A stretch of DNA of 64,000 bases. Source: an uncultured Thermotogae bacterium (lineage in GTDB: Bacteria; Thermotogota; Thermotogae; MWEM01). The notes under the pieces are model-generated. The model was not told where the DNA came from and made no database searches. It worked only from the letters and a program-made list of their open reading frames with translations. The DNA lies in contig OY763325.1 in NCBI GenBank assembly GCA_963667315.1, forward strand, positions 1,826,380 to 1,890,379. Reading direction: 5' to 3'. The translations under genes were made by a program, and so were the position numbers. Every line of letters begins with the position of its first letter. Position 1 is the first letter of the stretch. Of the stretch, positions 20,120-59,178 are shown in pieces.

Positions 20120-20301
20120 AATTAAAGAAAATCATAAAATAAACAGATCACCTGAAACGGAATTTATATAATTCCGTTTTTTTATTTCACGCTCCAGCTC
20201 TGGTGTATAATATTCCAGAAAACAACGTAATACGCTTCAGAGAATACTGCATCATTGTATATAATAAATAGAACAAACCCATTATTAATCGGAGGAAGGA
20301 C

Positions 20302-22565: not shown

Positions 22566-22651
22566 GTGTGGGGGAACTTCAGATTTAATACTGCACTGTA
22601 TTCAGTGTATAATGTTTCCTGAGAAGATTATCAGATTTTTGGAGGTGGATT

Positions 22652-30036: not shown

Positions 30037-30735
30037 GTGACTTGTATGAATGAAAACTGTTTGGATGATCGTGAGAAAAACATATACTTCCAGTATTTGT
30101 CAGGAATTAATTTAAAATCTATAGATGCTGCAGAACTTATGCGGATAGAAATGCATCTATTTGAATGCAAAGAATGCTATGAACAGGTAAAAAAAGAATA
30201 TAAACTCATTAAATTTCTTCAGAACTGGTCATTTGAAGGACACGCTCAAACAGTTAAACTTTTCAATTTCATTGAAAATTTGAGAAATTACTACGAAGAG
30301 GAAAATGACGAAAAGAAAAAAAATTTAATTGAGAAATTACTTCAATCTGACTTTGATTATCGCGGAAGAGGTTTTGATGAATTTCTGAATAAACGTAAAG
30401 AAAAAGAGACTTTTAAATTCAAATATTTCTTTACAATAGAAGTGGAAAAAACCAAAGAAAATTCACAAAAACTAAAAATTTTAGATGAAAAAAAATCGGC
30501 TGAAGAATTCGTCTTATGCTATAAAGATAATTATCTCTTGATCAAATCTAGAACTGACAATTTTGCTGGAACCGATACACCTTTTGGGATATTGTCTTCT
30601 GTCAACAAAGAGAATAATTATCTAAAATTAAAGCAATTTACTCCAACAGACGAAAGTCCTCAATTATCCTTTTTATGTCTAACTCCTGGAAGATATAATC
30701 TGTATATTGAGGAGAATATTTCAGCTAGCAAATAG
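30037..30735 (+). CDS. zf-HC2/ZAS-type anti-sigma-like protein with X-like C-terminus (copy 3)
   Basis: MHLFECKECYE (HxxxCxxC); C-terminal SFLCLTPGRYNLYIEE resembles F.DL..G.Y.lfIE. Start may be ATG 30046. Confidence 0.7.
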   Translation: MTCMNENCLDDREKNIYFQYLSGINLKSIDAAELMRIEMHLFECKECYEQVKKEYKLIKFLQNWSFEGHAQTVKLFNFIENLRNYYEEENDEKKKNLIEKLLQSDFDYRGRGFDEFLNKRKEKETFKFKYFFTIEVEKTKENSQKLKILDEKKSAEEFVLCYKDNYLLIKSRTDNFAGTDTPFGILSSVNKENNYLKLKQFTPTDESPQLSFLCLTPGRYNLYIEENISASK

Positions 30736-30928
30736 GAACTGGAGGGGGTTAAAGTTAAATGCTAAGTCATAAATCGTGCAGTGTAGAGTTTTCTGCGTAT
30801 TTCGGCTATTCTTGACTGACATAGAGCCGTTCAAGGAGCTGAGTTTCATAAATGTTAAAATGAAATACCGTCTCAGTCTTTTATGTTCTATATGTCACTC
30901 AAGTATTGATTGTGTGAGGTGAAGTTAA

Positions 30929-31996
30929 ATGAACATAGAAATGCGGAAGTATTTACTTCAAAGCTTTATCAAGTTTTTCATTTTAAATCATTCTGAACTT
31001 CTAAGGCGTTTTTCAGATGACGAAGAAATTGTTAATCTTTGTTTTAAAGAGGTTTTAAGTGTTCTCAGCGATCAGGAAATAGAAGTTTTATGCAATGATC
31101 CACAAAAAAGATTTGATTTACTGAAGCTCGAAAGAGTTAACGATAGGATATATTTCGAGTTAATAAAACAAGGGAATCATAATGCGATTTCTGACTTAAT
31201 GAAATCCTATACACCTCAGATCAGATTCTATTTCTATAGTTTACTCGGAAAAAAATTCATTTACTGCAACAGAAATATTGTGAATGATGTAATTGATTCT
31301 GAATGGTGTAAACTTTGGCTTTACAGAGAGAATTATGATTACTCAATTGCCAGTTTCGTTACTTATTTCATCCGCATAGTCTATAATGCTTTGCGCGAAA
31401 TTGAAAGAAAACTTTCTAATGATGCTCAGGTTATTATATGGCTTTCTTCCAAGAAGAAGACAGAAAATGTGTTTATTGATGATCCTATTGAGTATCTTGG
31501 TTTTAGAAATTGCGCATTATGTCCACGGACACCAGAAAATATATGTGTGGATTACCATGAAGGACAAATTGTTTTAGGGTATTTATTTAAAACGAGATTA
31601 GCACCTGTTTGGAAAATCATTTTATATGGAATTATGATCAGTAATTACAAGATCGGTTATATTGTTCAAGAGCTTTCTGAACATAATATGTATCAGTTGT
31701 TGAGTATTTTGAAAACAGAAATCTCAAACACTCTTCCTGAATCTGTTGACTATTTATCATGGCTCTTCAGAGAAATACATGAAGATATTGAACAAACACC
31801 ATCTGATTTATTTTCAAAATTCGGGGGCAAATCAGATAAGAAAATAGCACAATATACCCATATTCCTGTGAAACATATAAAACTGAAAGATTTGATCAAG
31901 GGGGAACAGACTTTAAGTAACTGGAAGTTTGCAATAAAAAGGACATTAAGAAAGCATCGTCTACGTCAAATTATCGAAGAAAAAGTTTTTTTTTAG
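30929..31996 (+). CDS. Divergent sigma-70 (ECF-like) protein (paralog 2)
   Basis: Region-2-like NAISDLMKSYTPQIRFYF...DVIDSEWCKLWLYRENYDYSIASFVTYFIRIVYNALRE. Confidence 0.6.
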   Translation: MNIEMRKYLLQSFIKFFILNHSELLRRFSDDEEIVNLCFKEVLSVLSDQEIEVLCNDPQKRFDLLKLERVNDRIYFELIKQGNHNAISDLMKSYTPQIRFYFYSLLGKKFIYCNRNIVNDVIDSEWCKLWLYRENYDYSIASFVTYFIRIVYNALREIERKLSNDAQVIIWLSSKKKTENVFIDDPIEYLGFRNCALCPRTPENICVDYHEGQIVLGYLFKTRLAPVWKIILYGIMISNYKIGYIVQELSEHNMYQLLSILKTEISNTLPESVDYLSWLFREIHEDIEQTPSDLFSKFGGKSDKKIAQYTHIPVKHIKLKDLIKGEQTLSNWKFAIKRTLRKHRLRQIIEEKVFF

Positions 31997-32079
31997 ACAA
32001 GGAATTACGTTTTTAATGTCTTTTCCTGTACTATCCCTCCATTTGTATGGCGGGGTAGTACAAAAAGGGGGGCGTAACA

Positions 32080-33150
32080 ATGAATAGCAATTCTGATTGT
32101 AAAAGAGATAAATATACTGCAAGAGAACTTCTTTCGCGAAGTATTTATATGGAGTTCAGACTGAAATACAAAAAGCTATTGACACCATCAGCACAAACTG
32201 AGGAAGAAAAAAAGAATATTATGTCTTCACTAAGAGAAGTTGTAGAAACTATAGTCAGGCAACTCAGCGACAAAGAAGTTAATTATTACATAGATAACAT
32301 CGACGATAGAAAGAAATTAGCTAATCGAATTAGGGATTATGCGCTTCTTTCCCTAGGAAGTGAAAATAAGGTTTTGGCAACAACACTTCTGATCAAACTC
32401 TACTCTGGATTTATCAGAAAGGTAGCTTTGCATACTTATTTAGATTATGAAATATCATTGAACTCGAATTCTTTCGAAGAAGTTGTTACTGATGTAATCT
32501 CAAAACTCTGGACAATTCGAAACACATATAATCCAATAAAAGGTACGTTTTCAACTTGGCTGGCAGCAATAATCCGAAATAATATCAGACACAATCAACT
32601 TGTTAGAAATAGAGTTTCATTAATTAGTTTGGATAAAAATTCAAATGATTCTGATTTTGATGATTTTGAAAATTATATTTATCAAATAGAAAGTCAAAAA
32701 TTGTTCACCTCTCCCGATGTGATTTTTGCAATAGAGTATTACGCGGAATCTGTTTTTATTGAGATATTTAAGGAACCAGTATCCTATCCGTGGCAGATGA
32801 TTTGTTTTTTGTTAAAAATAATAGGATACAGACCAAAATCTATTGTTGATCAATTCTCTGACTTAACACTCAGCCAGATTACAAAAAGTTTAAAAACAGA
32901 CTTTAAAATAATCAGTCGGTTTGAAAATGCTTTTATTGATAAATCTTTTGAACCATTTGAATCTAATTTAGAAATTAAGTTAAGTTCCGAGAATTCCCCA
33001 ACTTTTTATTACAAAAATCTTAAACTTTTTATCGGAAAAAGAACTGGTGACATTGAGTTGAATAATTTTTTTGGTAAATCACCTTCAAAATCTGTCAGTG
33101 AGTGGGCTTTAAAAGTCAGTCATAAATTGAGTTTAAAATTTGCAGAATAA
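32080..33150 (+). CDS. Divergent sigma-70 (ECF-like) protein (paralog 3)
   Basis: Clearest region 2: LLIKLYSGFIRKVA...FEEVVTDVISKLWTIRNTYNPIKGTFSTWLAAIIRNNIR. Confidence 0.7.
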   Translation: MNSNSDCKRDKYTARELLSRSIYMEFRLKYKKLLTPSAQTEEEKKNIMSSLREVVETIVRQLSDKEVNYYIDNIDDRKKLANRIRDYALLSLGSENKVLATTLLIKLYSGFIRKVALHTYLDYEISLNSNSFEEVVTDVISKLWTIRNTYNPIKGTFSTWLAAIIRNNIRHNQLVRNRVSLISLDKNSNDSDFDDFENYIYQIESQKLFTSPDVIFAIEYYAESVFIEIFKEPVSYPWQMICFLLKIIGYRPKSIVDQFSDLTLSQITKSLKTDFKIISRFENAFIDKSFEPFESNLEIKLSSENSPTFYYKNLKLFIGKRTGDIELNNFFGKSPSKSVSEWALKVSHKLSLKFAE

Positions 33151-35675: not shown

Positions 35676-36860
35676 TTATACACCCGTTTTGTACGCGCCA
35701 AGTTTTTTTCTCAAGGCTTCCACTTCTTCCTGATGTTCAAACAGGGCACAGGGGCCGTTCGTGTTTTCCAGAACGTGTCCGTTTTCTCTCAGTTCTACGA
35801 AGAGCGGGCTTGCGAGACCCTCTTTCAGGGTTGACTTTCTCATGTTATGCGTGGCGATGTCGGAAACGGGGCACGGGGTCAGGTCTCCCAGTGAATTGAT
35901 GTGGGCAAAGCCTTTTCCCGATGAGACACAACCCCCGAAGAGTTCTTCATCTCCTGGGGAATGAATAATGAACAACTGTTTTTCATCCTTGAACTTCAGA
36001 ACCTGCTCTCTGAAGGCCTTTCTCTGGACACTGTCAAGGCAAAGCTCCCGGCTGATCTTCGGGTCAGATGTTGAACAGGTGGAGTCTTTTTTCATCCGGT
36101 CGCTTTCCGTTGCGGCAACGGGGATATATTCTGTCAGGAATGCGAGATGAAGTCCTTCGTCGATGAATTCATCCACACTGTCTTCACGCATCCAGTAGTC
36201 GTAGTTTTTATTGGTGATGGTGACGGAGATCCCGCTGAGGATTCCCGCTTTCCCCAGTCGCTTTGCCGTGCCGACGGCTTTTTCATGTATACCCTCGCCT
36301 CGTCGCTGATCGGTGATGTCTTTTGAGCCTTCCACGCTGACGACGATCCCCGTGTTGCTCATCTTCTTGAGTTTTTTATACTCTTCATCCCCAATGGCGG
36401 TTCCGTTGGTAAAGATGAGAAAGAGCTTGTCATCGTGTTTGGCACACAGGTCCAGCAGTCCCTTGAAGACAAATGGTTCTCCTCCGGCGATGAGGAAGGC
36501 GTAGGTTCCCAGTTCAGCGGCCTCCGTGATGACACGGTCCCAGTCTTCAACCGTCATATGCGGCTGTGTGTTTCTCTCATCCATCTCAGAGACGTTCCCA
36601 AGGGCAGCGGCAAAACAGCCCTGACATTTCAAGTTGCATAAATGGGTAATGCTGAGTATCATGATAGGCGGCACCATGACGCCTTCTTTTTCCAACACTT
36701 CTTTTCTCCGCTCTTCACATCTGTAAAAATTTTTCATCATTCCGGCAGATTTCGTCAGGTATCTGGGATGTTTCATGATGAAGGGGAGAAATATTCTGGA
36801 GAGTTTGGGATTGACAAAATTCAACGCTTCTTTTATCTGATTCAACATCATTGTTTTCAC
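35676..36860 (-). CDS. Radical SAM protein with SPASM/twitch-like C-terminus
   Basis: CNLKCQGC (CxxxCxxC), AGGEPF, C-terminal GCVSSGKGFAHINSLGDLTPCP. Confidence 0.9.
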   Translation of the reverse strand: MKTMMLNQIKEALNFVNPKLSRIFLPFIMKHPRYLTKSAGMMKNFYRCEERRKEVLEKEGVMVPPIMILSITHLCNLKCQGCFAAALGNVSEMDERNTQPHMTVEDWDRVITEAAELGTYAFLIAGGEPFVFKGLLDLCAKHDDKLFLIFTNGTAIGDEEYKKLKKMSNTGIVVSVEGSKDITDQRRGEGIHEKAVGTAKRLGKAGILSGISVTITNKNYDYWMREDSVDEFIDEGLHLAFLTEYIPVAATESDRMKKDSTCSTSDPKISRELCLDSVQRKAFREQVLKFKDEKQLFIIHSPGDEELFGGCVSSGKGFAHINSLGDLTPCPVSDIATHNMRKSTLKEGLASPLFVELRENGHVLENTNGPCALFEHQEEVEALRKKLGAYKTGV

Positions 36861-39431: not shown

Positions 39432-39536
39432 CTATAAATCTGCCCATGCTACATCTTCTTCAGGGGACAACCAGTCTTTTTTCAGAACTTCTTCACTTGC
39501 CAGCGTTAACTCACTAACCTCTTTTGTTTCCATCAT
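39432..39536 (-). CDS. 34-aa mini-ORF resembling the C-terminus of DUF2281-type TA-associated proteins
   Basis: My translation MMETKEVSELTLASEEVLKKDWLSPEEDVAWADL after GGAGG; the family resemblance (LASE..L..DW..PEED.AW..L) is from memory. Confidence 0.5.
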   Translation of the reverse strand: MMETKEVSELTLASEEVLKKDWLSPEEDVAWADL

Positions 39537-39543
39537 TCCTCCA

Positions 39544-39717
39544 TCAATTTTCAATCTCACTAAAACTGTTGATAATATTCAGAGCTTCAAATAGGATATC
39601 ATATGGCAGTCTTTCGATGATTACAGCGGGTCTTTTCCCTTTTTGTTCATGTCCTTTTTGAGGATTAAAGTCCAGAAAAACAATATCTCCCTGTTTTGGT
39701 TTGTAATCTGCTGTCAT
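39544..39717 (-). pseudogene. mazF: MazF/PemK toxin with large in-frame internal deletion (57 aa left)
   Basis: MTADYKPKQGDIVFLDFNPQKGHEQKGKRPAVI joined directly to the C-terminal IERLPYDILFEALNIINSF; about half of a typical ~110-aa PemK fold is missing. Confidence 0.8.
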
Positions 39718-39950
39718 ATTTCATTTCCCAGCGAATCTCCGGTATCCCATTCAGAACAGTTATAGTCCCCTTTGTAATCTTTTACTCTATCTTTTTATGA
39801 TATATGCTTTTTTACCGGAACAATAATAATATTCCCATCGACCACTTTAACTTCAACCTGATCATTTTCTCCAATTTTCATTTTATCCAGAATAATCCTG
39901 GGAATCCAGATTGCGTAACTGTTCCCCCGTTTTTGAATTTTAGTCAACAT
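39714..39950 (-). pseudogene. mazE: MazE/AbrB antitoxin with premature stop
   Basis: MLTKIQKRGNSYAIWIPRIILDKMKIGENDQVEVKVVDGNIIIVPVKKHIS*KDRVKDYKGDYNCSEWDTGDSLGNEI*; TAA at 39795-39797; the original stop overlaps the mazF ATG (ATGA). Confidence 0.82.
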
Positions 39951-43236: not shown

Positions 43237-43609
43237 GTTGTTTGTTTTAGCCAGAGGGAACGTCCCCTTGATCACACCCTTGATCACAGCTCATCATGTG
43301 CATCGGCATAAATGAGTAAATATCATGCTTCTGTCAAAAATTCAACAAAATGATTCATATACGCAATTAAACTTCATATTGTCTATACATTTTATCTGTA
43401 GTATATGCATCGGGGATTGTGAAATAAATCCCAATTAACTGATATCAAACACGATAACCATACGACTTGTTGAAATAAATCAGTTTAAGCAGCAACATGA
43501 ATCGATTAAAGAGAAAAGGATGGACTTTTTAAAGTTGAATTGGCCGGAGGAGAATTCCGGATGGTGTTCCGCTCAATGAGGGCGATAAACAATTAAGAGG
43601 TGTAAAAAG

Positions 43610-43732
43610 ATGAAAAGATATTCAAACGACAAATACTATTACTGGCTGGATGAATTTGAGAACCCGGATGCGGTGAAACCGGTACAGGAAAAAGTCAACA
43701 AGTTTCACTGGTCTCATCTTCTGATCAGATAA
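43610..43732 (+). CDS. Small peptide A, 40 aa (family 1)
   Basis: GAGGTG RBS; MKRYSNDKYYYWLDEFENPDAVKPVQEKVNKFHWSHLLIR; paralog of 44532. Confidence 0.75.
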   Translation: MKRYSNDKYYYWLDEFENPDAVKPVQEKVNKFHWSHLLIR

Positions 43733-43746
43733 ATAGTTTCTTTTTC

Positions 43747-43776
43747 AAAGGAGGTCTTAGAAAGACCTCCTTTTTT
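43747..43776 (+). terminator. Rho-independent terminator after peptide A
   Basis: AAAGGAGGTCT-TAGAA-AGACCTCCTTTTTT. Confidence 0.8.
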
Positions 43777-43968
43777 CATGTCTGCCCATCAACCTGTTTA
43801 TAAAGCTGAAAAGCTCATTTATAGCCATTTTTACATTTAAAGACATCTTACAAAACAGAAATATATATTCACCTATATTTAATATGTCGCCATGTAATAA
43901 ATTCCAGATATCTTCGTCAAGTGTTATGAAAGTACGAATCAGGAACTATTTTAAAGGGAGGGATTCGA

Positions 43969-44103
43969 ATGAACAGATGGATAAGAAGAAAAGCATTTCA
44001 TAAAAACAGTCACATTAAAGATATTAGTATCGGTGAGCAGATAGAGGAAACGAAAGATAAAATCAATTTTATGTTTTATGACATGAACGCCTTTATACGA
44101 TAA
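43969..44103 (+). CDS. Small peptide B, 44 aa (family 2)
   Basis: GGGAGG RBS; MNRWIRRKAFHKNSHIKDISIGEQIEETKDKINFMFYDMNAFIR. Confidence 0.75.
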   Translation: MNRWIRRKAFHKNSHIKDISIGEQIEETKDKINFMFYDMNAFIR

Positions 44104-44114
44104 GGAGGGATTTT

Positions 44115-44243
44115 ATGAGATTGTTTAAAAGTAAGACCTTTTTTAACAAAAAAGCACAGATCAACGATATCAACGAACAGATAGAAGAAACGAAGGATAA
44201 ACTATATTTCATGTATTTCGGCAGAAACGGATTCAGCAGATAA
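44115..44243 (+). CDS. Small peptide C, 42 aa (family 2)
   Basis: AAGGAGG RBS; MRLFKSKTFFNKKAQINDINEQIEETKDKLYFMYFGRNGFSR. Confidence 0.78.
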   Translation: MRLFKSKTFFNKKAQINDINEQIEETKDKLYFMYFGRNGFSR

Positions 44244-44254
44244 GGAGAAATGTT

Positions 44255-44380
44255 ATGAAAAGATTTGAAAATCAATTGTTTAACAGGGACAATCAGTATA
44301 AGGATATCAACGAAAGAGTTGAAGAATCAAAAGATAAATTTTATTTCATGCTTCACGGATTAAATGGATTTACAAGATAA
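44255..44380 (+). CDS. Small peptide D, 41 aa (family 2)
   Basis: AAGGAG RBS; MKRFENQLFNRDNQYKDINERVEESKDKFYFMLHGLNGFTR. Confidence 0.78.
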   Translation: MKRFENQLFNRDNQYKDINERVEESKDKFYFMLHGLNGFTR

Positions 44381-44392
44381 GGGGTGATGAAG

Positions 44393-44518
44393 ATGAAAAA
44401 ACTTTTCAGAAAATTTATAAGCAGGGACTTTAACGGAAATTATGACAACACTAATGTTGAAGCATCAAATTCAACAATTTATTATACATTTAATGATTTA
44501 AACGGTTTTAACAGATGA
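44393..44518 (+). CDS. Small peptide E, 41 aa (family 2, divergent)
   Basis: GGGGTG RBS; MKKLFRKFISRDFNGNYDNTNVEASNSTIYYTFNDLNGFNR. Confidence 0.72.
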   Translation: MKKLFRKFISRDFNGNYDNTNVEASNSTIYYTFNDLNGFNR

Positions 44519-44531
44519 GAGGTGTAAAAAG

Positions 44532-44669
44532 ATGAAACGTTATGCAAATGATAAGTATTATTACTGGCGAGATGCCCTGACAGATCCAAAACAGAGGACC
44601 GCAAACAAAGAAACAGAAACAGCGGATGATAGAGACAGACTGCATTGGTTATTTCCGTTGTTAAGATAG
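44532..44669 (+). CDS. Small peptide F, 45 aa (family 1)
   Basis: Same GAGGTGTAAAAAGATGAAA leader as peptide A; MKRYANDKYYYWRDALTDPKQRTANKETETADDRDRLHWLFPLLR. Confidence 0.75.
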   Translation: MKRYANDKYYYWRDALTDPKQRTANKETETADDRDRLHWLFPLLR

Positions 44670-44690
44670 ATTAAAAATTCCCCCAAAGCA

Positions 44691-44722
44691 AAGAGAGAGG
44701 GCTTTTTCAAGCCCTCTCTCTT
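44691..44722. terminator. Bidirectional terminator between the peptide array and a GLUG lipoprotein gene
   Basis: AAGAGAGAGGGCT-TTTTCA-AGCCCTCTCTCTT. Confidence 0.75.
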
Positions 44723-44780: not shown

Positions 44781-46844
44781 CTACTCCGTCCCTGGTGCCG
44801 GAGACTGTGGAATACTTTTCAGATACGGATAAGAGTTGTCTTCAACAATTGTCCAAACCGTACCAAAATCCCATACCGAATCAAAGGTCTCCTTGCTCTT
44901 CATCTCTGCGGTTGTTTTGCCCGTTACGCCTGTTGAGGAGCCAATGGCAATGTCACTTGAAGCCTCTGACACATCCGTGTCCCAGAAGGAATGTGTTATG
45001 GTAAAACTAAAACCGAGTGCCTTCCCTGCAAAGCCGCCGATTTCAAATCCGGTCCCCGTTGCATTTCCACTCGCATAGGCATTGACAATACTGCTGCTAA
45101 GATTTATCACCCCTGCAAAACCGCCAACAGTATAGCTCCCACTTGCTTTGCCTGTCGTATACGCATTTTCAATACTACCGCTATACTGATTCCCCACAAA
45201 GCCGCCGGCATATTGTGTTCCGCTTGCAATTCCGGTCGAATAAGCGTATGTGATACTGCCACCCTGTTGTTTTCCGATAAAACCACCAACTGAATTATCA
45301 CCCTCTACCTCAGCGGATACATTCGTGTTTGAAATACTTCCAGCAACCTGCACACCCACAAAACCACCAATGTTGATAGAGCCATTAACAGTACCATCCA
45401 CCTCAACATTTGTGATAGTTCCGGAAACAAGACTGCCAACTAATCCACCGACTGCTGCAAAACCATTCACATTGATATTTTCCAACCTCAACTGTTCAAT
45501 CGTTGCCGCCTCAATCATTCCAAAGAGTCCTATCGCGGTGTCACTGTTTTCAGTTCTGTCAATACAAAGATCGGCTATCGTGTGCGTCGCTGAGCCGCCA
45601 TAACCCGTGAAATGTCCGGTGAATCGATTTGCATCTGTCCCGATGGGTTCCCATCCGGAGGGATTATCAACCGTCGTCGCCGCATACGTCTCATAATATT
45701 CCGTCTGGGATGAGAGATCCGTCGTCAGCATGAAGTGGACGTCTTCTCCCATGTAATCCCGCACGTTGTTCAATTCTTTCCAATTGCCAATCTGATACGG
45801 ATCGTTTACCGTTCCGTTTCCGGCGGAGAAATCCGTTAATGCCGTGAATCGTGCGTTTCTCGCCAATCCGGCATTCAACGTCCAGGTAATTGACCCCTCA
45901 TAAAGATCTCCCACTCCCGTCGGCAGCAGGATGCAGTCTGTGGCCACACCATAAATAGCCAACGTGTATTGTTGGGCATTGTGATAGGCGGCATTCGTCA
46001 GGTTATCGGACCAGATTTTGAACAACACCCGCTCCCCTTCCTGTGAGAAGGTGTAGGCTTCATTTTCCCCTTCCGTTCCAACTTGTCTCAGTCTTTCCCG
46101 CGTATCCGGAGCTTCTATCACCTCTGCCCCACTCTGCGATACACTCAAACGATTGGTATTCCCGAAGAATATCAAGGCGTTTTGCTCCGATACCGGCCGG
46201 TCCACGAGAAAATTAAACGCACTTTCCACCGTATGTTCCGATGATACCTGTCGGGCATCGTAATAGTATTTCAGGGTGTAGGCATTCCCATCACTCGATT
46301 TGACATACTTTGGCCGAAGCAGGACTCCGTTGTTGTACACCCGGCTCGTCTCACTCGCCTTCAGGGTGATGTAATCCGTCAGGAGCATCTCGTACAAATC
46401 CGTCCCGTTTTGTGTCTCGTCATCCTGGAGGATGACCCATTTCAGAGTTGTTCCCGTTACCCTTTGTGTCGCTCTCTCTGCACCGCTCCAAATCGTTCCC
46501 GCTTCTATCGCCTCTCGGGTGATGTCCTCCGGAATGAAGCAGATGTAACGTGCGTGATCCACTTTGTGTCCCGAAATCTTAAATGTTTCCGTTCCCTCTC
46601 CCGTTACGCTCAACGTGAATGGCGTTATCATCTCCCGACTCGTTAATTCATCTTTGTCAATCGTCAGACTCCACAATCCGAATTCCCTGTAATCCTCAAG
46701 TCCATAGTCTCCAATCTCGGATAGTTTTATCCCTTTGACAACAGATATTGCATTCGTATCTTTGCCTCCACGATTGATACACGAAACCATCAACAGAGCC
46801 GCAACGACCATAGCACATATCAAGATCAGTTTCCCCTTTCTCAT
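44781..46844 (-). CDS. Lipoprotein with unknown N-terminal domain and one GLUG-repeat module
   Basis: Lipobox LLMVSC; FSAGNGTVNDPYQI, repeated GGLVG/GGFVG motifs, FWDTD...YPYLKS. Confidence 0.8.
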   Translation of the reverse strand: MRKGKLILICAMVVAALLMVSCINRGGKDTNAISVVKGIKLSEIGDYGLEDYREFGLWSLTIDKDELTSREMITPFTLSVTGEGTETFKISGHKVDHARYICFIPEDITREAIEAGTIWSGAERATQRVTGTTLKWVILQDDETQNGTDLYEMLLTDYITLKASETSRVYNNGVLLRPKYVKSSDGNAYTLKYYYDARQVSSEHTVESAFNFLVDRPVSEQNALIFFGNTNRLSVSQSGAEVIEAPDTRERLRQVGTEGENEAYTFSQEGERVLFKIWSDNLTNAAYHNAQQYTLAIYGVATDCILLPTGVGDLYEGSITWTLNAGLARNARFTALTDFSAGNGTVNDPYQIGNWKELNNVRDYMGEDVHFMLTTDLSSQTEYYETYAATTVDNPSGWEPIGTDANRFTGHFTGYGGSATHTIADLCIDRTENSDTAIGLFGMIEAATIEQLRLENINVNGFAAVGGLVGSLVSGTITNVEVDGTVNGSINIGGFVGVQVAGSISNTNVSAEVEGDNSVGGFIGKQQGGSITYAYSTGIASGTQYAGGFVGNQYSGSIENAYTTGKASGSYTVGGFAGVINLSSSIVNAYASGNATGTGFEIGGFAGKALGFSFTITHSFWDTDVSEASSDIAIGSSTGVTGKTTAEMKSKETFDSVWDFGTVWTIVEDNSYPYLKSIPQSPAPGTE

Positions 46845-47124: not shown

Positions 47125-50100
47125 TTATTCCTCATATCCAGGTGCGGGTTCCTGTGGGATGCTCCTCAGATACGGGTAGGATATTTGCCCCACCTCTTCC
47201 ACAATCGTCCAGACCGTGTCAAAATCCCAGTCGGCATCGGTAAAGGTTGTCTTATCCTTCATCTGCGCCGTCGTTTTTCCCGTTATGCCCGTTGACGATC
47301 CGTAACCAACCCCGGAAGATTTCCCGGAGCTCTCTGTATCCCAGAATGCCTGGTTGATAGTTACACCATTCTCAACTATCCCGGCAAAGCCACCGATATT
47401 GCCGTTTCCCGAAACACTTCCTGTCGTATACACGTTATTGTACGTTCCCTCATATATAACCCCGACAAAGCCACCGACACAATTACTGAAAAAACCATCT
47501 CCGACCACACTTCCCGTCGTATACACGTTGCTGAGATTTTCCACCTCCAATGTTCCGGCAAAGCCGCCAATCTCCCAATTAACACCAGACACAATTGTGT
47601 TCGTATACGTATTGATGATGTTCTTCCCCGCAGATACAATTCCAACAAGACCACCGATGGCGTCTCCACCCCTCACGGTTCCCGTCGTATACGTGTTGAT
47701 GATATTCATTCTACTGGTTTTCCCCGCAAGAACACCTGCACCCGTTAATCCTGATACATTCCCAGACACAAATACATCTTCAATCGTTCCAGAAGACATC
47801 AATCCCACGAGACCGCCCACATAGAAATTACCGGTCACTTTCACATCCTTCAGTCCAAGATGTGTAAACGTTGCGCCTTGTGTCTCTGAAGCAACATAAC
47901 CAAACAAGCCTACATGATCTTCACTCGGACGGTCTATACACAGATCCGCTATCGTATACGTTGCCTGTTCATCATAACCGCCGAACGTCCCGAAGAATGG
48001 CTTCTCTACTGTCCCGATCGGCTCCCAGCCCTTATTACCCGGTGTCGTCTTTGTCGCCACATACGTTTCGTAATGCGCCGTCTGCGATGAGAGATCCGTT
48101 ATCAGCTTGAAGTGTACGTCTTCTCCCATGTAATCCCTCACGCTGTTCAGCTGTTTCCAGTTCGCTATTCGGAATGGTTCCGCCTCCGTTCCGTTTCCTC
48201 CCTCAAAGATGGATTCCAGACCTGGAGGTGGCGTTTGCGGAACGCTTCTCAGATACGGGTAGGATATTTGTCCATCATTCTCAACGATCATCCAGACCGT
48301 GTCAAAATCCCAGTCGGCATCGGTAAACGTCGTCTTTTGCTTCATCTGTGCCGTCGTCTTTCCCGTTATGCCCGTTGACGATCCGGAGCCAACACCGTCA
48401 GCCTGCCCGGAGTTCTGTATATCCCAGAATGACCGGCTGATGGTTCCAGTCATTATTTCTCCGACAAAGCCACCTACCTCAAAGCTTCCCGTTACACTTC
48501 CCGCCGTATAGGTCTTACTGATACTTGCATTATTAAGGCCTCCGGCAAAGCCACCGATTTCACGCTCTCCCGTCACCACCACTGTCGTATAGGTGTTACT
48601 GACCTCAACATCACTAATCCAGCCTGCTAAACCACCCACATCACGGTCTCCCGTCACGGTCCCGGTCACACACACATTATTAACAATTCCTGCCAGGAAT
48701 CCTGTTAAACCACCAGTATAATTGCCCCCCGTCACAGTCCCGTTCACTGCCACATTGCTAAGCTCGCCACCATTAATCATTCCAGCCAAACCACCAGCAG
48801 AACGCTCTCCCATCACAATCCCGCTCACGCTCAGGTTGCCGATTTCCACCTTTTTTATAAGTCCTGTTAAACCACCCACGTACTGCTGACCGGTCACCTT
48901 CACATCTTCAAGTCCAAGCTGTGTGATCGTCGCCCCTTCTGTGTATGTGCCGATAACACCAAATAAACCCACAAAATCTTCACCCGGACGATCGATGCAC
49001 AGATCCGTTATCGTGTGCGTTGCCGCCCCGTCATAGCCGCTGAACGTTCCAAGAAATGGATTTGCCTCTGTTCCGATTGGCGCCCATCCCTTATTGCCCG
49101 GCGTCGTCTGTGTCGCCACATACGTTCCATAATACGCCGTCTGCGATGAGAGATCCGTTATCAGGGCAAAGTATACGTCTGAGGCCATGAAGTTCCTCAC
49201 GTTGTTCAGGTGCTTCCAGTTCGCTATCTGATATGGATTTCCCACTGTCCCGTTTCCACCGGCAAAGGGCATTATTACTGAAAATCTGGCATTCCTCGCC
49301 AGTTCTTCGTTCAACGTCCAGTTGATACTCCCCTCGTATAGCCCGTTCATTCCCGTCGGCGGCAGTTCACACGGCTCCGGTAATCCTCTGATTGACAGGA
49401 GGAATTTTTCCGCCTTCTTGTATGAATCGTTCGTCAGCCTTTCGGACCAGATCTTGAACACGACCTTGTCACCATCCTGTGAAAAGGTGTAGACTTCATT
49501 TTCCCCTTCAGTTCCGAGCTGTCTCAGTCTGTCCCGTTCGTCGGGTATATCTATTTTCTCCCTGCCGTCATCCGTTACAGACAAACGGTTTGGATTTTCG
49601 AAATACAGCAGGCCGTTATGTGCTTCTACCGTTCTATCTCTTAAAAATTCCAATGCACTCTGCGTATTCCGATTCGGTGAGACCTGTCGCGCATCGTAAT
49701 AACGCCGCAGGCTGTACGCATTCTCTTCGCTCGTCTTCACGTATGATGGGCGGATCAGTTCGCCTCCGGCGTATATGCGGCTCGTCTCACTCGCCTTCAG
49801 CGTGATGTAATCCGTCAGGAGCATCTCGTACAAATCTGTCCCGTTCTGCAGCTCATCATCCTGAACGATCACCTTTTCGATTCCAAGCCCTTCTCCAGTT
49901 CGTGAACTTCTTTCAGTCCCGCTCCATATCATCCCCGCTTCTATCGCCTCGCGGCTTATCCCCTCCGGGATGAAGCAGATGTAAAGCGCATGATCCACCT
50001 TGTGCCTTTTTATCTCAAGGGTTTCCGTCCCCATTCCTGTTATCCTCAGCGTAAGTGGCGATGTTGTCATTCCCAGCACCGTTAGTACCTCTTTCTCTAT

Positions 50101-50283
50101 CGTCAAACTCCAAAGTCCTAATTCCCGGTAATCCTCCAATTTGTACGCTCCCACTTCCGCAAGTGCTATGCTCTTTAAAACCTGCTCCCCGTTTATCATA
50201 CTTTTACGCTGTGCACACGAGATCATCAGCAACCCCGCGACAATCAAGATTACAATTGTCATTAACTTTTTTCTTTTCTCCAT
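47125..50283 (-). CDS. Lipoprotein paralog with two tandem GLUG-repeat modules
   Basis: Lipobox LLMISC; N-terminal ~320 aa homologous to 44781; two modules GGNGT...PY/FxIANW...YPYLRS.P with near-identical DNA at 47160-47290 and 48249-48380. Confidence 0.82.
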   Translation of the reverse strand: MEKRKKLMTIVILIVAGLLMISCAQRKSMINGEQVLKSIALAEVGAYKLEDYRELGLWSLTIEKEVLTVLGMTTSPLTLRITGMGTETLEIKRHKVDHALYICFIPEGISREAIEAGMIWSGTERSSRTGEGLGIEKVIVQDDELQNGTDLYEMLLTDYITLKASETSRIYAGGELIRPSYVKTSEENAYSLRRYYDARQVSPNRNTQSALEFLRDRTVEAHNGLLYFENPNRLSVTDDGREKIDIPDERDRLRQLGTEGENEVYTFSQDGDKVVFKIWSERLTNDSYKKAEKFLLSIRGLPEPCELPPTGMNGLYEGSINWTLNEELARNARFSVIMPFAGGNGTVGNPYQIANWKHLNNVRNFMASDVYFALITDLSSQTAYYGTYVATQTTPGNKGWAPIGTEANPFLGTFSGYDGAATHTITDLCIDRPGEDFVGLFGVIGTYTEGATITQLGLEDVKVTGQQYVGGLTGLIKKVEIGNLSVSGIVMGERSAGGLAGMINGGELSNVAVNGTVTGGNYTGGLTGFLAGIVNNVCVTGTVTGDRDVGGLAGWISDVEVSNTYTTVVVTGEREIGGFAGGLNNASISKTYTAGSVTGSFEVGGFVGEIMTGTISRSFWDIQNSGQADGVGSGSSTGITGKTTAQMKQKTTFTDADWDFDTVWMIVENDGQISYPYLRSVPQTPPPGLESIFEGGNGTEAEPFRIANWKQLNSVRDYMGEDVHFKLITDLSSQTAHYETYVATKTTPGNKGWEPIGTVEKPFFGTFGGYDEQATYTIADLCIDRPSEDHVGLFGYVASETQGATFTHLGLKDVKVTGNFYVGGLVGLMSSGTIEDVFVSGNVSGLTGAGVLAGKTSRMNIINTYTTGTVRGGDAIGGLVGIVSAGKNIINTYTNTIVSGVNWEIGGFAGTLEVENLSNVYTTGSVVGDGFFSNCVGGFVGVIYEGTYNNVYTTGSVSGNGNIGGFAGIVENGVTINQAFWDTESSGKSSGVGYGSSTGITGKTTAQMKDKTTFTDADWDFDTVWTIVEEVGQISYPYLRSIPQEPAPGYEE

Positions 50284-52341: not shown

Positions 52342-54450
52342 ATGAAAACAATGAAAAACGCCTTAAAAAAACAGGAACATTACCTGTCAACGATCATCAT
52401 AATCCCTTTGATGATCTTTATCGTTATCTTGTCGATACTGATGTGGACCAATCATTTCGCCGCAAGGCTTTACAGGATCAATTCCAGTTCTGAAGCATTC
52501 GTTAAAGAACTGGTCAACGAATTCATCCTGCTGGAATCAACCTTCAATCAAAAGATGAGCTTTCTCCTTGAACAGGGTTATGATCAATCATTTGATGAAA
52601 ACACCATCAACAGTATCCGTGAAGAGCTGTTGGCAACCGAATCCGATTTTCCCTCCGCTTTGAATACGGCATTCTCCAAAGAGCCGGAATTAGTTCGGCA
52701 GATGTCGGATTTAAGCCCGGGGGATGTTTACTACAGCAGTCTGGCCAGCGAACCCGAAACGGGAGATGTTCGATTATACGCCTATATTCGACTGCCGGAC
52801 CGTTCTTTTTTCGGTGTCGGGGTTAAATTCGGAGAGATAAAGGAACGTGCCATACGGATCATGGCAGAAGTTTTTTCCGACCCCGCTCTGAGTCTCAAAA
52901 ACCCGGGAAATTATACTCCGACTGAGCTTTTGCTCTTTGAGGAATCCCTTGAAAAGAATCTACCGGTTTATCATATCCGTTCTCTGACCGAGCTGGATCT
53001 GTATGTCAAAAAGGCTACGAGATACGGTAGCTACCGGTTTATCATCACAACAAGATTTGATGTCTCGCTCTATATCCTCATCACCGTAATCGTCCTGTCG
53101 GGTCTTTTTATAGGCCTCCGCCTCTTTGTCAATCAAAACATCGAGAAAATATCCGGTAATTTTTCACACAACCTTGAAAGACTGGAACATAACGTTCAGA
53201 ATTTTCAGCTGGATGACTTCAGTGTAAATCCGGAGGACATCAACTCCGATATCAAGGAGATTGATGCCATCTCAAAGGCCTTTCTGAAGATGCGGGACGA
53301 CATCATCAACTCCTATGAAGAGCTTTCAGCGATGAATCAAGAGATTGAAGCCACCTATATGGAAAATCAGAACTTGTTGAAGAAGGTGGAAGCCTTTTTA
53401 AACATGCCGGATTATCTTCTCTATCTGAACAATACCGAACGGTTCCTGCTCAGAAGTTTTGAGCGAATCCTGTCGCTTGTGGACGGGATGGATTTGGGGT
53501 ATGTCGCCTTTTATGACGAGGGGGAATACAAATTTCTGGACTTCGTCGGAATCGATATGGAGCTGATCAATTCAATCCCGACGGAACCGGAAACTTATGC
53601 CCTGTCAGAAGAGGATCAGCATTATGATGCGGTTGCCCTCGTCGATTATGCAGAAGGGGAGTATCTGACCCGATACAGGGAAATCCCTGAAATACGCGAA
53701 TTCCAGGTGGATATTGCACAGGTTCTATATATCCCCATCTCCACCGAAAACAGTTATCTCGGGGATATCTGTCTGTTTACGCAGAGAAAAAGCGGGAATC
53801 GCATGACCGATGACGATTACCGGATCGCAGCCTTCTTCGCCAATTATCTGAAAGGGTATTTGATGATCAAGGAATTATCGACAGATGAAGCGGAACTTCA
53901 GAAAGAGACGATCTACTCCCTGATCAGACTGCTGGAACAGCATGATCCCTACACAAAGGGACATTCTGAAAGTGTCGCAAAACTGGCAGCCGATTTCGCC
54001 ACTTATCTTAAACTCCCGGAACAAACGGTTCAGTCCCTTTACTGGTCGGGGATCGTTCACGATATGGGAAAGATTCTCATCCCCAACAGCATTCTGAATA
54101 AACCGGCAAGACTCTCAAAAGAGGAATTCGCGATCATTCAGAATCATCCGGAGTACGCCTGGGATGTCCTGAAAAAAAACAAGAACATGGAACATATCGC
54201 CATTTTCATCAAACATCATCATGAAAAGTACGACGGCAGCGGTTACCCGGACAAGTTGAAAGGCGATCAGATTCCCTTTGAATCGAGAATCCTTACCCTG
54301 GCCGATGCCTGGGATGCCATGACTGCCGAGCGCGTCTATAAGAAGGGCATGTCTGCGGAAGATGCCCTTGAAGAGATTCAAAGGAATGCCGGTGTTCAAT
54401 TTGACCCGGAATTGGTCACAAAATGGATACAGTTCATCCAGAACGACTAA
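52342..54450 (+). CDS. Membrane-bound HD-GYP c-di-GMP phosphodiesterase (paralog 1)
   Basis: TM-extracytoplasmic-TM-coiled coil-GAF-like-HD-GYP; QHDPYTKGHS, HDMGK, HHEKYDGSGYP, ADAWDAM. Confidence 0.92.
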   Translation: MKTMKNALKKQEHYLSTIIIIPLMIFIVILSILMWTNHFAARLYRINSSSEAFVKELVNEFILLESTFNQKMSFLLEQGYDQSFDENTINSIREELLATESDFPSALNTAFSKEPELVRQMSDLSPGDVYYSSLASEPETGDVRLYAYIRLPDRSFFGVGVKFGEIKERAIRIMAEVFSDPALSLKNPGNYTPTELLLFEESLEKNLPVYHIRSLTELDLYVKKATRYGSYRFIITTRFDVSLYILITVIVLSGLFIGLRLFVNQNIEKISGNFSHNLERLEHNVQNFQLDDFSVNPEDINSDIKEIDAISKAFLKMRDDIINSYEELSAMNQEIEATYMENQNLLKKVEAFLNMPDYLLYLNNTERFLLRSFERILSLVDGMDLGYVAFYDEGEYKFLDFVGIDMELINSIPTEPETYALSEEDQHYDAVALVDYAEGEYLTRYREIPEIREFQVDIAQVLYIPISTENSYLGDICLFTQRKSGNRMTDDDYRIAAFFANYLKGYLMIKELSTDEAELQKETIYSLIRLLEQHDPYTKGHSESVAKLAADFATYLKLPEQTVQSLYWSGIVHDMGKILIPNSILNKPARLSKEEFAIIQNHPEYAWDVLKKNKNMEHIAIFIKHHHEKYDGSGYPDKLKGDQIPFESRILTLADAWDAMTAERVYKKGMSAEDALEEIQRNAGVQFDPELVTKWIQFIQND

Positions 54451-54638
54451 ATCATCAATCTTCCAGCATAAATTCAAAATGATAATAATTTGTTCTTCAT
54501 GAAACGGCTATCATTTTCTTCCACAACGGTATCTGTATATTCAAATAAATTTTACTTGTTTCATCCTGTTACATTTCATCAAACACCCCTGAAAATGCTA
54601 TACTTCCTTGTGATTCTGTCGCAGAAGGGTGATACAAA

Positions 54639-56825
54639 TTGAAGACCTTAAAATCCGAACTCAGGAACGCCGGTAAGCGTCTTTCTTTACTGGTTTCCGT
54701 TCCATTCAGCATCTTCGTCATAATATTGTCGGTTTCACTACTAACCGCTTCTTTCAACGCAATGATTCATGAGATTGATGCTAAATCCGAAAAACTCATC
54801 AACACGATCAGTTATGAGTTGGTGATGCTTGAAACAAAATTCAACGCGTTGACGGAAAATATCCTTCTTAAGGCCTATCCCGATTCATTTGCGGCGGAAG
54901 ACATACAGAAATTCAGAACCCTGCTAATGAATGAAGAAACAGCTTTTCCCATCAAAGCCATCAATTATTACCGGATAAATGAAGATTTTCTGATCTACGA
55001 TACGGATTTTGCAACGGATCTCGGAGCTGATTTCGGCAACAACCGGTATTTCCAGGAGAATTTCTGGCCTTTGCAACCGGGCGAGGTCTTTACAGATCAT
55101 CTGATCCGGGAAACAGCTACGGAAGATATCCGACTGTACAGTTATATCAAACTGGAAGACGGTTCCCTTTTTGAACTGGGCATTAAATTCAGTGGTGTAA
55201 AAGAGATGATTGAGACGGCTACCCAAAGGATTTTCGATGACGGCCCCAGCGAAATTGCGATTTATGTCCCTTATTCCTGTGAGGAAAACCATCTTTTCAA
55301 AACCGCTCAGGAATCCGGAAAACCCGTTTATAATATGCTTTCACCGAGCAGCGCTGAGTTCTATATCGGAAAACAATCGAAATTCGGCATCTATCATTTC
55401 ATCGTCAAGACAACCTTCAATTATCCGCTTTATTTTACAGCGGCCATCATCATCATATTTGTGATGTATTTTGTACTGAAAAGACTGGTCGATCAACGTT
55501 CCAACAAGATAGCCGAAAGATTTTCAAAAAGTATCGAAATTCTCGATAAAAACCTTAAAAAGTTCCACTTGACAAATTCTCCGGAACCCCCGCAGAAAAT
55601 CACCTGTGATATTGCGGAGATCAATTCCATCTCAAATTCTTTTCTGAAGATGCGAACCGATATCATCGACTCTTATGAAGCGTTGAATCAATTGAACCGG
55701 GAACTCGAACGCTCATTTACTGAAAACCAGTCCCTTTTGAAAAAAGTGGAGGCCTTTCTGAACTTCCCGGATTATCTGCTCTACAAAGACAGCACGGAAA
55801 AATTCCTCGTCCGATGTTTTGAAAAGATGCTGCAGCTGTCAAACACCTGTGATTACGCGTATGCCGCCATCATCGAAGAGGATGGCGTCTACCACTTCCT
55901 CGATTTTAAGGGGTTGGATGTCGATATGATGAACCGTCTCAGACTTGTAGCCGATCATTATCCCAGGTCGGATCACGTTGCCCTGTTCAATTATAAGGTT
56001 GGACAATATTATAATGAACACAGTGATATTCCCGAATTAAAGGCAGAAATCGATGATATTCAACAGGCCCTGGCAATCCCGGTTGCCAGCGAAAATAATT
56101 ATTACGGCAGCATCACACTCCTGACAAAACGTTCTTCAGACAATCTGCTGACCGAAGAGGATTATCGAATGGCAACCTTTTTCTCCAATTATCTGAAAGG
56201 GTATCTGAGTCTCAAAGAGCTGGCAAATTACGAAGATGATCTTCAGAAGGAGACGATCTACGCGCTGATCCGATTGCTGGAGCAGCACGATCCCTACACC
56301 AGAGGACACTCTGAAAGTGTGGCGGGACTGGCATCAGACTTCGCGCTGCATCTGGGATTTGTGGAACAAGAGTCCCAGGAACTGTACTGGGCGGGAATCG
56401 TCCATGACATGGGAAAGATCCTCATCCCCAACAGCATCCTGAATAAACCGGCACAACTGACCAGTGAAGAGTTTGAAGTGATCAAAAAGCATCCCGTCTA
56501 CGCCTGGGATGTGCTGCGAAAAAACAAACACATGGAAAACATTGCCAATATCATCAAACATCATCACGAAAAATATGACGGCAGCGGTTATCCCGATGGA
56601 TTAAGCAGCAACCGAATCCCCTTTGAATCGAGAATCCTCACCCTCGCCGATGCCTGGGATGCCATGACCGCCGAGCGCGTCTACAAGAAGGGAATTTCGG
56701 TGGAAGAAGCCCTCGAGGAGATCCGAATGAATTCGGGAAAACAGTTTGATCCCATACTCGTTGAAAAATGGGTGAATTTTGTTCAGACCGGATTGAATGA
56801 TCGTCAAAACAAGAAAAAACCGTAA
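54639..56825 (+). CDS. Membrane-bound HD-GYP phosphodiesterase (paralog 2)
   Basis: Same architecture and intact motifs; TTG start. Confidence 0.92.
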   Translation: MKTLKSELRNAGKRLSLLVSVPFSIFVIILSVSLLTASFNAMIHEIDAKSEKLINTISYELVMLETKFNALTENILLKAYPDSFAAEDIQKFRTLLMNEETAFPIKAINYYRINEDFLIYDTDFATDLGADFGNNRYFQENFWPLQPGEVFTDHLIRETATEDIRLYSYIKLEDGSLFELGIKFSGVKEMIETATQRIFDDGPSEIAIYVPYSCEENHLFKTAQESGKPVYNMLSPSSAEFYIGKQSKFGIYHFIVKTTFNYPLYFTAAIIIIFVMYFVLKRLVDQRSNKIAERFSKSIEILDKNLKKFHLTNSPEPPQKITCDIAEINSISNSFLKMRTDIIDSYEALNQLNRELERSFTENQSLLKKVEAFLNFPDYLLYKDSTEKFLVRCFEKMLQLSNTCDYAYAAIIEEDGVYHFLDFKGLDVDMMNRLRLVADHYPRSDHVALFNYKVGQYYNEHSDIPELKAEIDDIQQALAIPVASENNYYGSITLLTKRSSDNLLTEEDYRMATFFSNYLKGYLSLKELANYEDDLQKETIYALIRLLEQHDPYTRGHSESVAGLASDFALHLGFVEQESQELYWAGIVHDMGKILIPNSILNKPAQLTSEEFEVIKKHPVYAWDVLRKNKHMENIANIIKHHHEKYDGSGYPDGLSSNRIPFESRILTLADAWDAMTAERVYKKGISVEEALEEIRMNSGKQFDPILVEKWVNFVQTGLNDRQNKKKP

Positions 56826-56927
56826 ATTCCATACGTCTATATTTTTTCTATTGCATTAATTCTATCAACACGCCATAAAACATGCTATAATTTAGTGTAC
56901 GAATATTAAAATTTCGGGTGATGATGG

Positions 56928-59093: not shown

Positions 59094-59178
59094 GTGTCTT
59101 ATTTCGTCATTAATGATAACCGACTAATAATTAGTATTCTTCCCGACGGGATGAATCCGTCAAAAAAATGGTGAAAGC

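Follow-up and report, generated by a model that had tools for sequence, protein, structure and literature searches.

A tandemly expanded pair of small-protein families in Thermotogota that may belong to an alternative-sigma stress regulon

An array of six short open reading frames (ORFs), here called A to F, lies in a 64,000-nucleotide stretch of DNA from an uncultured Thermotogae bacterium (GenBank assembly GCA_963667315.1, contig OY763325.1, positions 1,826,380 to 1,890,379; this whole stretch is referred to below as the window). The six ORFs are all on the forward strand, encode 40–45 amino acids each, span positions 43610–44669, and are set in a region that extends from 43497 to 44722. Patterns of nucleotide substitution clearly indicate that they are real protein-coding genes under purifying selection, and they fall into two new families, family 1 (A and F) and family 2 (B to E), which are obligately paired and whose known members are limited to a narrow clade of Thermotogota. 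The reading that we favor, and to which we give a probability of roughly 0.6, is that they make up a stress-regulon small-protein pair and are neither precursors of ribosomally synthesized and post-translationally modified peptides (RiPPs) nor secreted peptides.

All positions are those of the whole window, and the ORFs were taken from a listing that began at 20 amino acids, together with a reading of the raw sequence (Table 1). A GGAGG-like Shine-Dalgarno sequence lies 5–8 nt 5' of each of the six, and successive genes from B to F are separated by only 6–13 nt; a preliminary description of this DNA, made without database searches, had reported both the ribosome binding sites and the tight packing. 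The start of E could be placed at 44384 (GTG), 44387 (ATG) or 44393 (ATG), all leading to the stop at 44518, and gene calls on sister contigs give the 43-amino acid form that begins at 44387. The array is divided into two units, with a terminator at the end of each, and equivalent hairpins are found 3' of the family 1 gene in loci L030 and L042 (L numbers are our handles for the loci compared). F represents the partner gene that closes every array. The preliminary description had argued for duplication of a cassette from a junction common to the two units, and that junction proves to be longer than it had stated, with 82% identity over 65 nt (43588–43652 versus 44510–44574). It had also proposed that a degenerate B-like stub begins at 43497. 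The position of this remnant directly 5' of the family 1 gene A, its MNRLKRKGW start and a 3' junction in common with the F side make a decayed family 2 gene plausible, but over its whole length its DNA has no significant similarity to B to E (z<1). A possible degenerate copy of the promoter element discussed below, 5' of the decayed unit, is put forward more hesitantly.

Table 1. Features of the small-protein array and its signals (positions in the window)
Feature	Position	Strand	Details
Candidate degenerate promoter copy	43420–43448	+	TGAAAT-N17-TATCAA, 5' of decayed unit, read from sequence
Putative decayed family 2 gene	43497–43596	+	5' end MNRLKRKGWTF, then stop; frameshifted 3' end ...FRMVFRSMRAINN, then stop
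A, second family 1 copy	43610–43732	+	40 aa, MKRYSNDKYYYWLDEFENPDAVKPVQEKVNKFHWSHLLIR
Predicted intrinsic terminator of A unit	43747–43773	+	Terminator-like hairpin
Promoter-like element of main unit	43893–43920	+	TGTAAT (43893–43898), 16-nt spacer, CGTCAA (43915–43920)
B, family 2 paralogue	43969–44103	+	44 aa, C-terminus NAFIR (NGFIR in sister strains)
C, family 2 paralogue	44115–44243	+	42 aa, C-terminus NGFSR
D, family 2 paralogue	44255–44380	+	41 aa, C-terminus NGFTR
E, divergent family 2 paralogue	44387–44518	+	43 aa from ATG 44387, C-terminus NGFNR
F, family 1	44532–44669	+	45 aa, MKRYANDKYYYWRDALTDPKQRTANKETETADDRDRLHWLFPLLR; head MKRYANDKYYYWRD, tail HWLFPLLR
Predicted intrinsic terminator of B–F operon	44691–44722	+	14-bp stem, then T-rich tail

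Alignments confirm the split into B to E on the one hand and A and F on the other that had been suggested for these peptides. Family 2 proteins have a variable basic N-terminus followed by the pattern [ND]-[DE]-I-x-E-x-x-E-x-[KG]-[DE]-[KR]-F-[YF]-F-M-x-H-G-[LI]-N-G-[FI]-(x)-R, which comprises a predicted amphipathic helix with D-I-x-E-x-x-E-x-K-D-K, an aromatic F-Y-F-M patch and a short ...NGFxR tail. Family 1 proteins begin with an invariant head, M-[KR]-R-Y-x-N-D-K-[YF]-Y-Y-W-[RL]-D, and end with the tail [HYD]-W-x-[FL]-P-x-x-[RGN]; the middle is a charged, variable linker that contains a conserved Pro. Common ancestry of the two families was considered and rejected, since hhalign gives a homology probability of 2% and the common part is just an [NK]-D-K-aromatic-x3 hexapeptide. 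Neither family has a match at E<0.01 in Pfam, NCBIfam, PADLOC, PHROGs or the PDB sequences. The peptides had been described as previously unannotated, and this is correct in that no library recognizes them, but several homologues have already been deposited as "hypothetical protein" in the records of metagenome-assembled genomes (MAGs).

Computed from their sequences, the peptides have grand average of hydropathy (GRAVY) values of -0.8 to -1.5, isoelectric points of 8–10 and 4–8 Asp or Glu residues each; aromatic residues make up 14–20% of the six window peptides, and Cys is absent from them. None of the six ORFs encodes a signal peptide or a hydrophobic N-terminal segment, and because they are in addition hydrophilic, they appear to be cytoplasmic in character. 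AlphaFold2 models C, as the family 2 example, as a single long helix (residues 3–36; mean predicted local distance difference test score, pLDDT, 67) with a free tail, and family 1 as helices with a pLDDT of 61; no transmembrane segment is among the helices, and that of family 2 is charged. The preliminary description had stressed that all six peptides end in hydrophobic-x-Arg, and had read their conserved free C-terminus as a sign of binding to a peptide-recognition domain or protease. The first statement holds in the window and fails as a family invariant, and the emphasis on Arg is not supported: the terminal Arg is frequent across lineages without being invariant, the last residue of family 1 being Gly in L030 and Asn in L042, while one family 2 homologue ends in ...NGFN, the family 2 tails of the MAG clade described below are ...NGIR or ...NSIR, and that of L061 is ...HGVIR.

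Selection on the six genes was measured by Nei-Gojobori counts. Between lineages the proportion of synonymous sites changed (pS) is 0.57–1.0, which is near saturation, whereas the proportion of non-synonymous sites changed (pN) is 0.14–0.36, and the ratio dN/dS is 0.13–0.27 where it can be computed. When three orthologous pairs are summed, the window and L030 differ at about 42 of 64 synonymous sites and at about 62 of 316 non-synonymous sites, and the six genes taken together show 11 synonymous and 5 non-synonymous differences from those of the close strain L033. The individual genes behave similarly: D has five synonymous and no non-synonymous differences from L033 and a dN/dS of 0.20 against L030; C is 69% identical to the product of the first L030 gene (pS 0.81, pN 0.14); E has a dN/dS of 0.23 against the second L042 gene; F has values of 0.13–0.27; and A is identical in protein sequence to its L033 copy with one synonymous change, and differs from F with a pN of 0.33 and a pS of 0.90. 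In addition, the invariant head of family 1 is written with different synonymous codons in different lineages. For scale, the peptides of the window and L030 are 60–69% identical, compared with 89% for the nearby asparaginyl-tRNA synthetase (AsnRS) and 43–49% for the neighboring HD-GYP and GLUG proteins. The preliminary description had named a lack of purifying selection, or a match to a characterized small-protein family, as grounds for rejecting it; neither was observed, since selection is clear and no known family matches.

Relatives were sought in word-indexed searches of 5.8 billion proteins and an exhaustive hidden Markov model search of 1.84 billion representatives, and those found by protein searches are confined to Thermotogota MAG and metagenome contigs. 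DNA-pattern scans of genomes and metagenomes for the family 1 head YxNDK[YF]YYW added further lineages and brought the total to about 12 distinct ones. Anaerobic digesters are among the sources of the contigs (for example samples JGI 3300042269-76 and 3300009713). Two viral contigs that matched this pattern did so by chance, inside unrelated ORFs, and a viral origin was therefore discarded. In every locus that retains its upstream flank the gene order is one to four family 2 genes and then family 1, with family 2 to family 1 ratios of 1:1, 2:1 and 4:1. The same-species strains L033–L040 have the same six genes as the window; L030–32 and L041–46 have two family 2 genes and one family 1 gene; and a Thermotogaceae MAG clade (L063, L066, L068, L070, L071, L072, L074 and L075) has exactly one of each, family 2 (...DINEVTKERFFFMSHGINGIR) followed by family 1 (MKRYANDKYYYWRDELTNPKP...HWIFPLIR). 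Family 2 and family 1 are thus obligately paired, with family 2 free to expand by paralogy, and the basic module is the pair, of which the array in the window is an expansion. The ancestral module would have been one family 2 gene and then one family 1 gene with a promoter and a terminator of their own; in the present genome family 2 would have grown to four paralogues ahead of F, and the second unit would have kept its family 1 gene, A, alone beside the decayed family 2 gene. Two loci have peculiarities of their own. L061 has family 2, family 1 and a third small ORF (1203–1310, forward strand, 35 amino acids, MRNLLGRMSRVQALDDIQKKIDYIKDSTLWNVERY) between family 1 and the terminator, which faintly resembles the helix of family 2 and could be another divergent member of the family. 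In L030 an insertion of about 35 nt (2365–2412) separates the ancestral Shine-Dalgarno and start position of the first family 2 gene from its current ATG, and the start is ambiguous, as translation from an in-frame TTG at position 2380 would yield 53 amino acids.

Upstream of the first family 2 gene, all nine of the nine lineages examined have the sequence TG(T/G)AATA, 16–17 nt and CGTCAA, followed by an AGTAAGGAAA-like stretch and then the Shine-Dalgarno sequence. The spacer is 16 nt in the window and 17 nt in the other lineages, CGTCAA is invariant, and the element is conserved even though the adjacent genes have reached saturation at their synonymous sites; the copy in Table 1 is the sole such site in the window. 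An RNA element was ruled out, since RNAalifold finds zero pairs in a consensus fold of the conserved leader, and the conserved block is therefore read as a DNA signal. The sigma-A of Thermotoga maritima is E. coli-like, and a multi-omics study of that organism came up with no motif for the three alternative ones (PMC3636130). Promoters of extracytoplasmic function (ECF) sigma factors carry AAC in the -35 block and CGTC or CGTA in the -10 block at a spacing of 16–17 nt (PMC5758882), and the element has just such a CGT(C/A) block 16–17 nt past its -35 block. Like the B. subtilis sigma-X, -M, -W and -V promoters (tGaAAC-N16/17-CGTC/CGTA; PMC5758882) it has 16–17 nt between its blocks and an exact CGTC, and like ECF promoters it lies 5' of stress genes, 40–50 nt before start codons; it differs from them in having TGTAAT in place of an AAC-bearing -35 block. 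Because it is unlike the sigma-A consensus and resembles the ECF blocks, we infer that it is an ECF-type alternative-sigma promoter and not a sigma-70 promoter.

How sigma-A sites look in this genome is shown by the gene for a methyl-accepting chemotaxis protein (MCP) in the window, whose promoter, TGGTATAAT (TGnTATAAT), is a canonical one; considered as a possible FliA comparison, it proved to be an ordinary sigma-A promoter with an extended -10. Matches of an 18-mer of the peptide-operon promoter to several other Thermotogota contigs were set aside as coincidental, since they fall within a large coding gene. The window also contains, at 30929–31996 and 32080–33150 on the forward strand, two divergent paralogues of about 355 amino acids (24% identical) with weak matches to sigma-70 region 2 and the ECF superfamily, preceded by a 232-amino acid ORF (region 30037–33150) with a faint RsrA-like anti-sigma match; the two paralogues may be atypical long ECF-like sigma factors. 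No sigma gene in the window has the same promoter, and a loose AAT-N-CGTC site 5' of 30929 has a different spacing.

The element provides the link to stress genes. In about 1 Mb of retrieved DNA, a regular-expression search located it just at the peptide operons and, in three related MAGs, 5' of a gene of the OsmC family. A scan for TGTAAT-N16/17-CGTCAANTNNTATGA over 596 Gb of species-representative genomes gave 24 matches. Four MAGs of this clade account for eight of them, each correctly oriented and 40–50 nt 5' of a start codon, and the genes behind them are the peptide operon, osmC (n=3) and a gene for an Hsp20/alpha-crystallin protein (n=3), with Pfam support of 9e-21 for OsmC and 6e-30 for Hsp20. 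The 16 other matches are scattered in unrelated taxa and agree with the chance expectation for the whole collection, which we estimate at about 35. One MAG, DAOTHY01, has the element at all three operons, and the extended form TGTAAT-N17-CGTCAA.T..TATGA stands at osmC or hsp20 in L005 (reverse strand, about 6580–6650), L006, L007, L097, L099 and L116. From the presence of the element at the peptide operon, osmC and hsp20 we infer a small stress regulon, consisting of a small heat-shock protein, OsmC and the peptide pair, that would be driven by an alternative sigma factor.

Several observations weigh against this reading or parts of it. In all sequences the -35 block is TG(T/G)AAT, that is AAT and not the ECF hallmark AAC, and the site may instead be FliA-like (TAAT-N15-GTCGTCAA) or be bound by a repressor or activator. 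The ECF-like paralogues at 30929–33150 lie 11 kb away from the array and match sigma models weakly. The association with hsp20 and osmC comes from related MAGs, the source genome having been scanned within 64 kb. As for the proteins, the variable ratio of family 2 to family 1 genes speaks against a strict 1:1 complex, and the confidence of the AlphaFold2 models is low (pLDDT 61–67).

In the window a GH38 mannosidase gene is upstream of the array, and downstream are two convergent genes for GLUG/M26_N-like lipoproteins, then AsnRS and four HD-GYP paralogues; this synteny is kept just in the closest lineages. The neighbors in other lineages include methyltransferase, NUDIX, caspase-like, S41 peptidase, DUF5700 and GGDEF-EAL genes, and differ further among GH38/GLUG, MNT-HepT and MarR-MatE genes (the last in one lineage). 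GH38 was tried as a synteny marker and abandoned, as the array is beside GH38 in none of 29 related loci; MAGs with a GH38 protein 51–57% identical to that of the window do carry the pair, on other contigs. Among the neighbors inspected in about 12 lineages there is no conserved maturase, exporter, immunity gene or receptor, and no RiPP recognition element (RRE) protein or protease adjoins the pair. Since the neighbors differ and include no conserved enzyme, the module appears to be self-contained: promoter, one or more family 2 genes, family 1 and terminator. Rfam and tRNA scans of the window gave no matches.

The GLUG/Peptidase_M26_N-like lipoproteins (44781–46844 and 47125–50283, reverse strand, convergent to the array) have the lipobox LMVSC, no detected catalytic peptidase domain, and a repeat number that varies greatly between lineages (687, 1052, 1098 and 1387 amino acids); L042 has GLUG genes at 9049–9460 and 10238–14401, with fragments upstream of its array. 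At 12322–25123 three paralogous TPR-CHAT (caspase-like) proteins of about 800–826 amino acids (13109–15514, 17028–19508 and 22652–25123, forward strand) are interleaved with domain-less ORFs at 12322–13080, 15548–16123, 16216–17004, 19613–20119 and 21257–21739. Remnants of a MazE/AbrB-like antitoxin (51 amino acids) and a truncated MazF/PemK-like toxin (57 amino acids), so named by reading the sequence, lie at 39432–39950 on the reverse strand; on sister-strain contigs (L033) an RpiR/SIS regulator takes this place, upstream of GH38, which sets the window strain apart from L033 at this point. MNT/HepT-type toxin-antitoxin pairs (Polbeta nucleotidyltransferase plus HEPN) occur in L030 (2922–3733) and L041 (1504–2186), and several lineages have such pairs, transposases and a group II intron reverse transcriptase close to the array; its surroundings are a hot spot of rearrangement.

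Short tandem paralogues in which aromatic motifs (KYYYW, FYFM) and the tails are conserved are what one might expect of RiPP precursors whose C-terminal or aromatic segments are cross-linked by an enzyme encoded elsewhere, and the window has a candidate in a radical SAM protein with weak SPASM-maturase-like matches, 7 kb upstream (35676–36860, reverse strand). This orphan protein matches the AhbD, AhbC, WgkB and NirJ models (SPASM-type) best, all far below their cutoffs (67 bits compared with cutoffs of 500–650), and it adjoins a nitrilase-family (CN_hydrolase) gene and split fumarase genes, with no precursor peptide noted nearby. None of the roughly 12 lineages, whose neighborhoods are unrelated, has a maturase, RRE protein, protease or exporter next to the pair, and the layout of leader and core would be reversed, as it is the N-terminus of family 2 that varies and its center and C-terminus that are conserved, while family 1 is conserved at both ends with a variable middle and has no recognizable leader; co-regulation with hsp20 and osmC also suits intracellular stress proteins better. 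We consider modification of this kind unlikely. Release of the tails as cell-cell signals is very unlikely in our judgment: the tails are conserved, several variants exist per genome, and possible sensors are at hand in TPR-CHAT proteins and in four tandem membrane-sensor HD-GYP paralogues of 702–728 amino acids downstream (52342–61338, forward strand), the first of which is 43% identical to its L030 counterpart compared with 89% for the adjacent AsnRS, so that the sensor domains are evolving fast; but the peptides have neither a signal peptide nor a hydrophobic segment for export, their tail is not the same in all lineages, most other lineages have no HD-GYP or TPR neighbors, and the operon comes with no receptor gene of its own. 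The TPR-CHAT genes of the window are more than 18 kb away, and none turned up beside the pair among the neighbors inspected in other lineages; pro-peptides of the RRNPP, Phr or arbitrium type, by comparison, have an N-terminal Sec signal peptide and a TPR-type receptor gene next to them. The preliminary description had correctly reported the lack of a signal peptide, of Cys and of an adjacent maturase or transporter; the RiPP-in-trans, protease-ligand and signaling roles that it offered find no supporting evidence, and the neighbors differ in every lineage.

As tandem homologues of 40–45 amino acids that lack a leader and Cys, carry a net positive charge and are rich in Trp, Tyr and Phe, the six peptides might also be taken for leaderless multi-peptide bacteriocins like aureocin A70, garvicin KS or enterocin L50, or for a similar set of peptides that are secreted or act on membranes. 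They are, however, strongly hydrophilic, have 4–8 acidic residues each and are predicted to form a long charged single helix and not a compact hydrophobic saposin-like fold, and an ABC exporter or immunity gene is not conserved nearby (MatE/MarR occurs in lineage 3 only), which leaves this idea highly improbable. We have strong doubts, too, about a small toxin-antitoxin (or addiction-like) system that shifts from one genomic context to another. Such a system would suit a core of two genes that has a promoter and a terminator to itself, as well as the varied contexts, often near MNT-HepT, HEPN/nucleotidyltransferase genes, transposases, group II intron reverse transcriptase or mazEF remnants. 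On the other hand, neither protein resembles any toxin-antitoxin component in PADLOC or Pfam, their size is well below that of typical type II toxins, they are not hydrophobic as type I toxins are, the family 2 copy number varies while family 1 stays single, and a promoter common to hsp20 and osmC is not like an autoregulated sigma-70 site. Finally, the runs of aromatic codons (FFF, YYYW) and the conserved W...P-x-x-stop ends of family 1 could suggest regulatory leader or arrest peptides that sense the supply of aromatic amino acids or stall ribosomes. Selection acts along the entire length, non-aromatic positions included, there are no alternative hairpins, and the last gene of the operon is followed by a strong terminator and then by a gene in convergent orientation, which leaves nothing downstream to be regulated; this anatomy largely refutes the idea, and we give it almost no credence.

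If the pair does belong to a stress regulon, transcription would start from the non-sigma-70, ECF-like TGTAAT-N16/17-CGTCAA promoter, and since hsp20 and osmC share it in the clade, a small heat-shock chaperone and a stress protein of the peroxiredoxin type would be produced along with the peptides. The two families would then act jointly, probably as a helical hetero-oligomer, whose exposed aromatic patches and tails would bind a protein partner such as a chaperone or an AAA+ protease, much as small modulators like lambda CIII or SpoVM do. Chaperones and Lon-type proteases typically recognize clusters of aromatic residues that are exposed on small soluble proteins, and for that reason a proteostasis modulator or decoy is our preferred guess for the biochemical step; it is the weakest part of the proposal, and the odds are well against it. 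Tentatively, and with somewhat less doubt, the pair might be described more broadly as a two-component small-protein stress effector of a kind not recognized before, a helical, aromatic-patch hetero-oligomer that acts directly on a proteostasis machine (the small heat-shock protein, Lon, FtsH or Clp) to tune it, or that shields membranes or nucleic acids. Its operon would then be the first target to be defined for an alternative sigma factor of Thermotogota, with a motif, TGTAAT-N17-CGTCAA, that was missed in T. maritima. In any case, two orphan small-protein families under clear selection, forming an obligate pair that can be expanded by paralogy, are added to a phylum in which small proteins are almost unstudied, together with a candidate promoter motif and mini-regulon (hsp20, osmC and the peptide operon) for a Thermotogota alternative sigma factor. 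Should the peptides modulate chaperones or proteases, they would constitute a new class of stress effectors; otherwise they are a clean example for small-ORF annotation pipelines, whose length cutoffs hide such genes. They should be of interest to specialists in small proteins and in Thermotogota regulation, with their narrow distribution as a limit.

Several known groups of short proteins resemble these families in part. Leaderless bacteriocins such as aureocin A70, garvicin KS and enterocin L50 are tandem, homologous, Cys-free and cationic peptides of about 30–45 amino acids that are rich in Trp and Tyr; the window peptides differ in being hydrophilic and acid-rich and in having no conserved exporter or immunity genes. 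The precursors of darobactin, triceptides and streptide are short, with conserved aromatic residues and in some cases conserved C-terminal cores, whereas here no maturase is co-located in any lineage and no leader can be recognized. Lambda CIII and B. subtilis SpoVM are proteins of about 26–54 amino acids with one amphipathic helix that are under stress or developmental control and bind a large machine; there is no homology to them, they are single genes and not a two-family pair, and binding by the present peptides is a proposal. The closest parallel in character may be the small stress proteins that depend on sigma-B or ECF sigma factors, such as B. subtilis CsbD, YflT and GsiB, which are likewise short, hydrophilic and cytoplasmic and lack an enzymatic domain, and like which the peptides are predicted to be members of a set transcribed, with hsp20 and osmC, from a non-housekeeping promoter. 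They have no sequence relationship to those proteins, and differ from them in that two families unrelated to each other always stand in tandem, in the expansion by paralogy and in the aromatic-cluster motifs. Small stress proteins under alternative sigma factors are thus known in general, and it is the paired two-family architecture and the candidate Thermotogota motif that are new.

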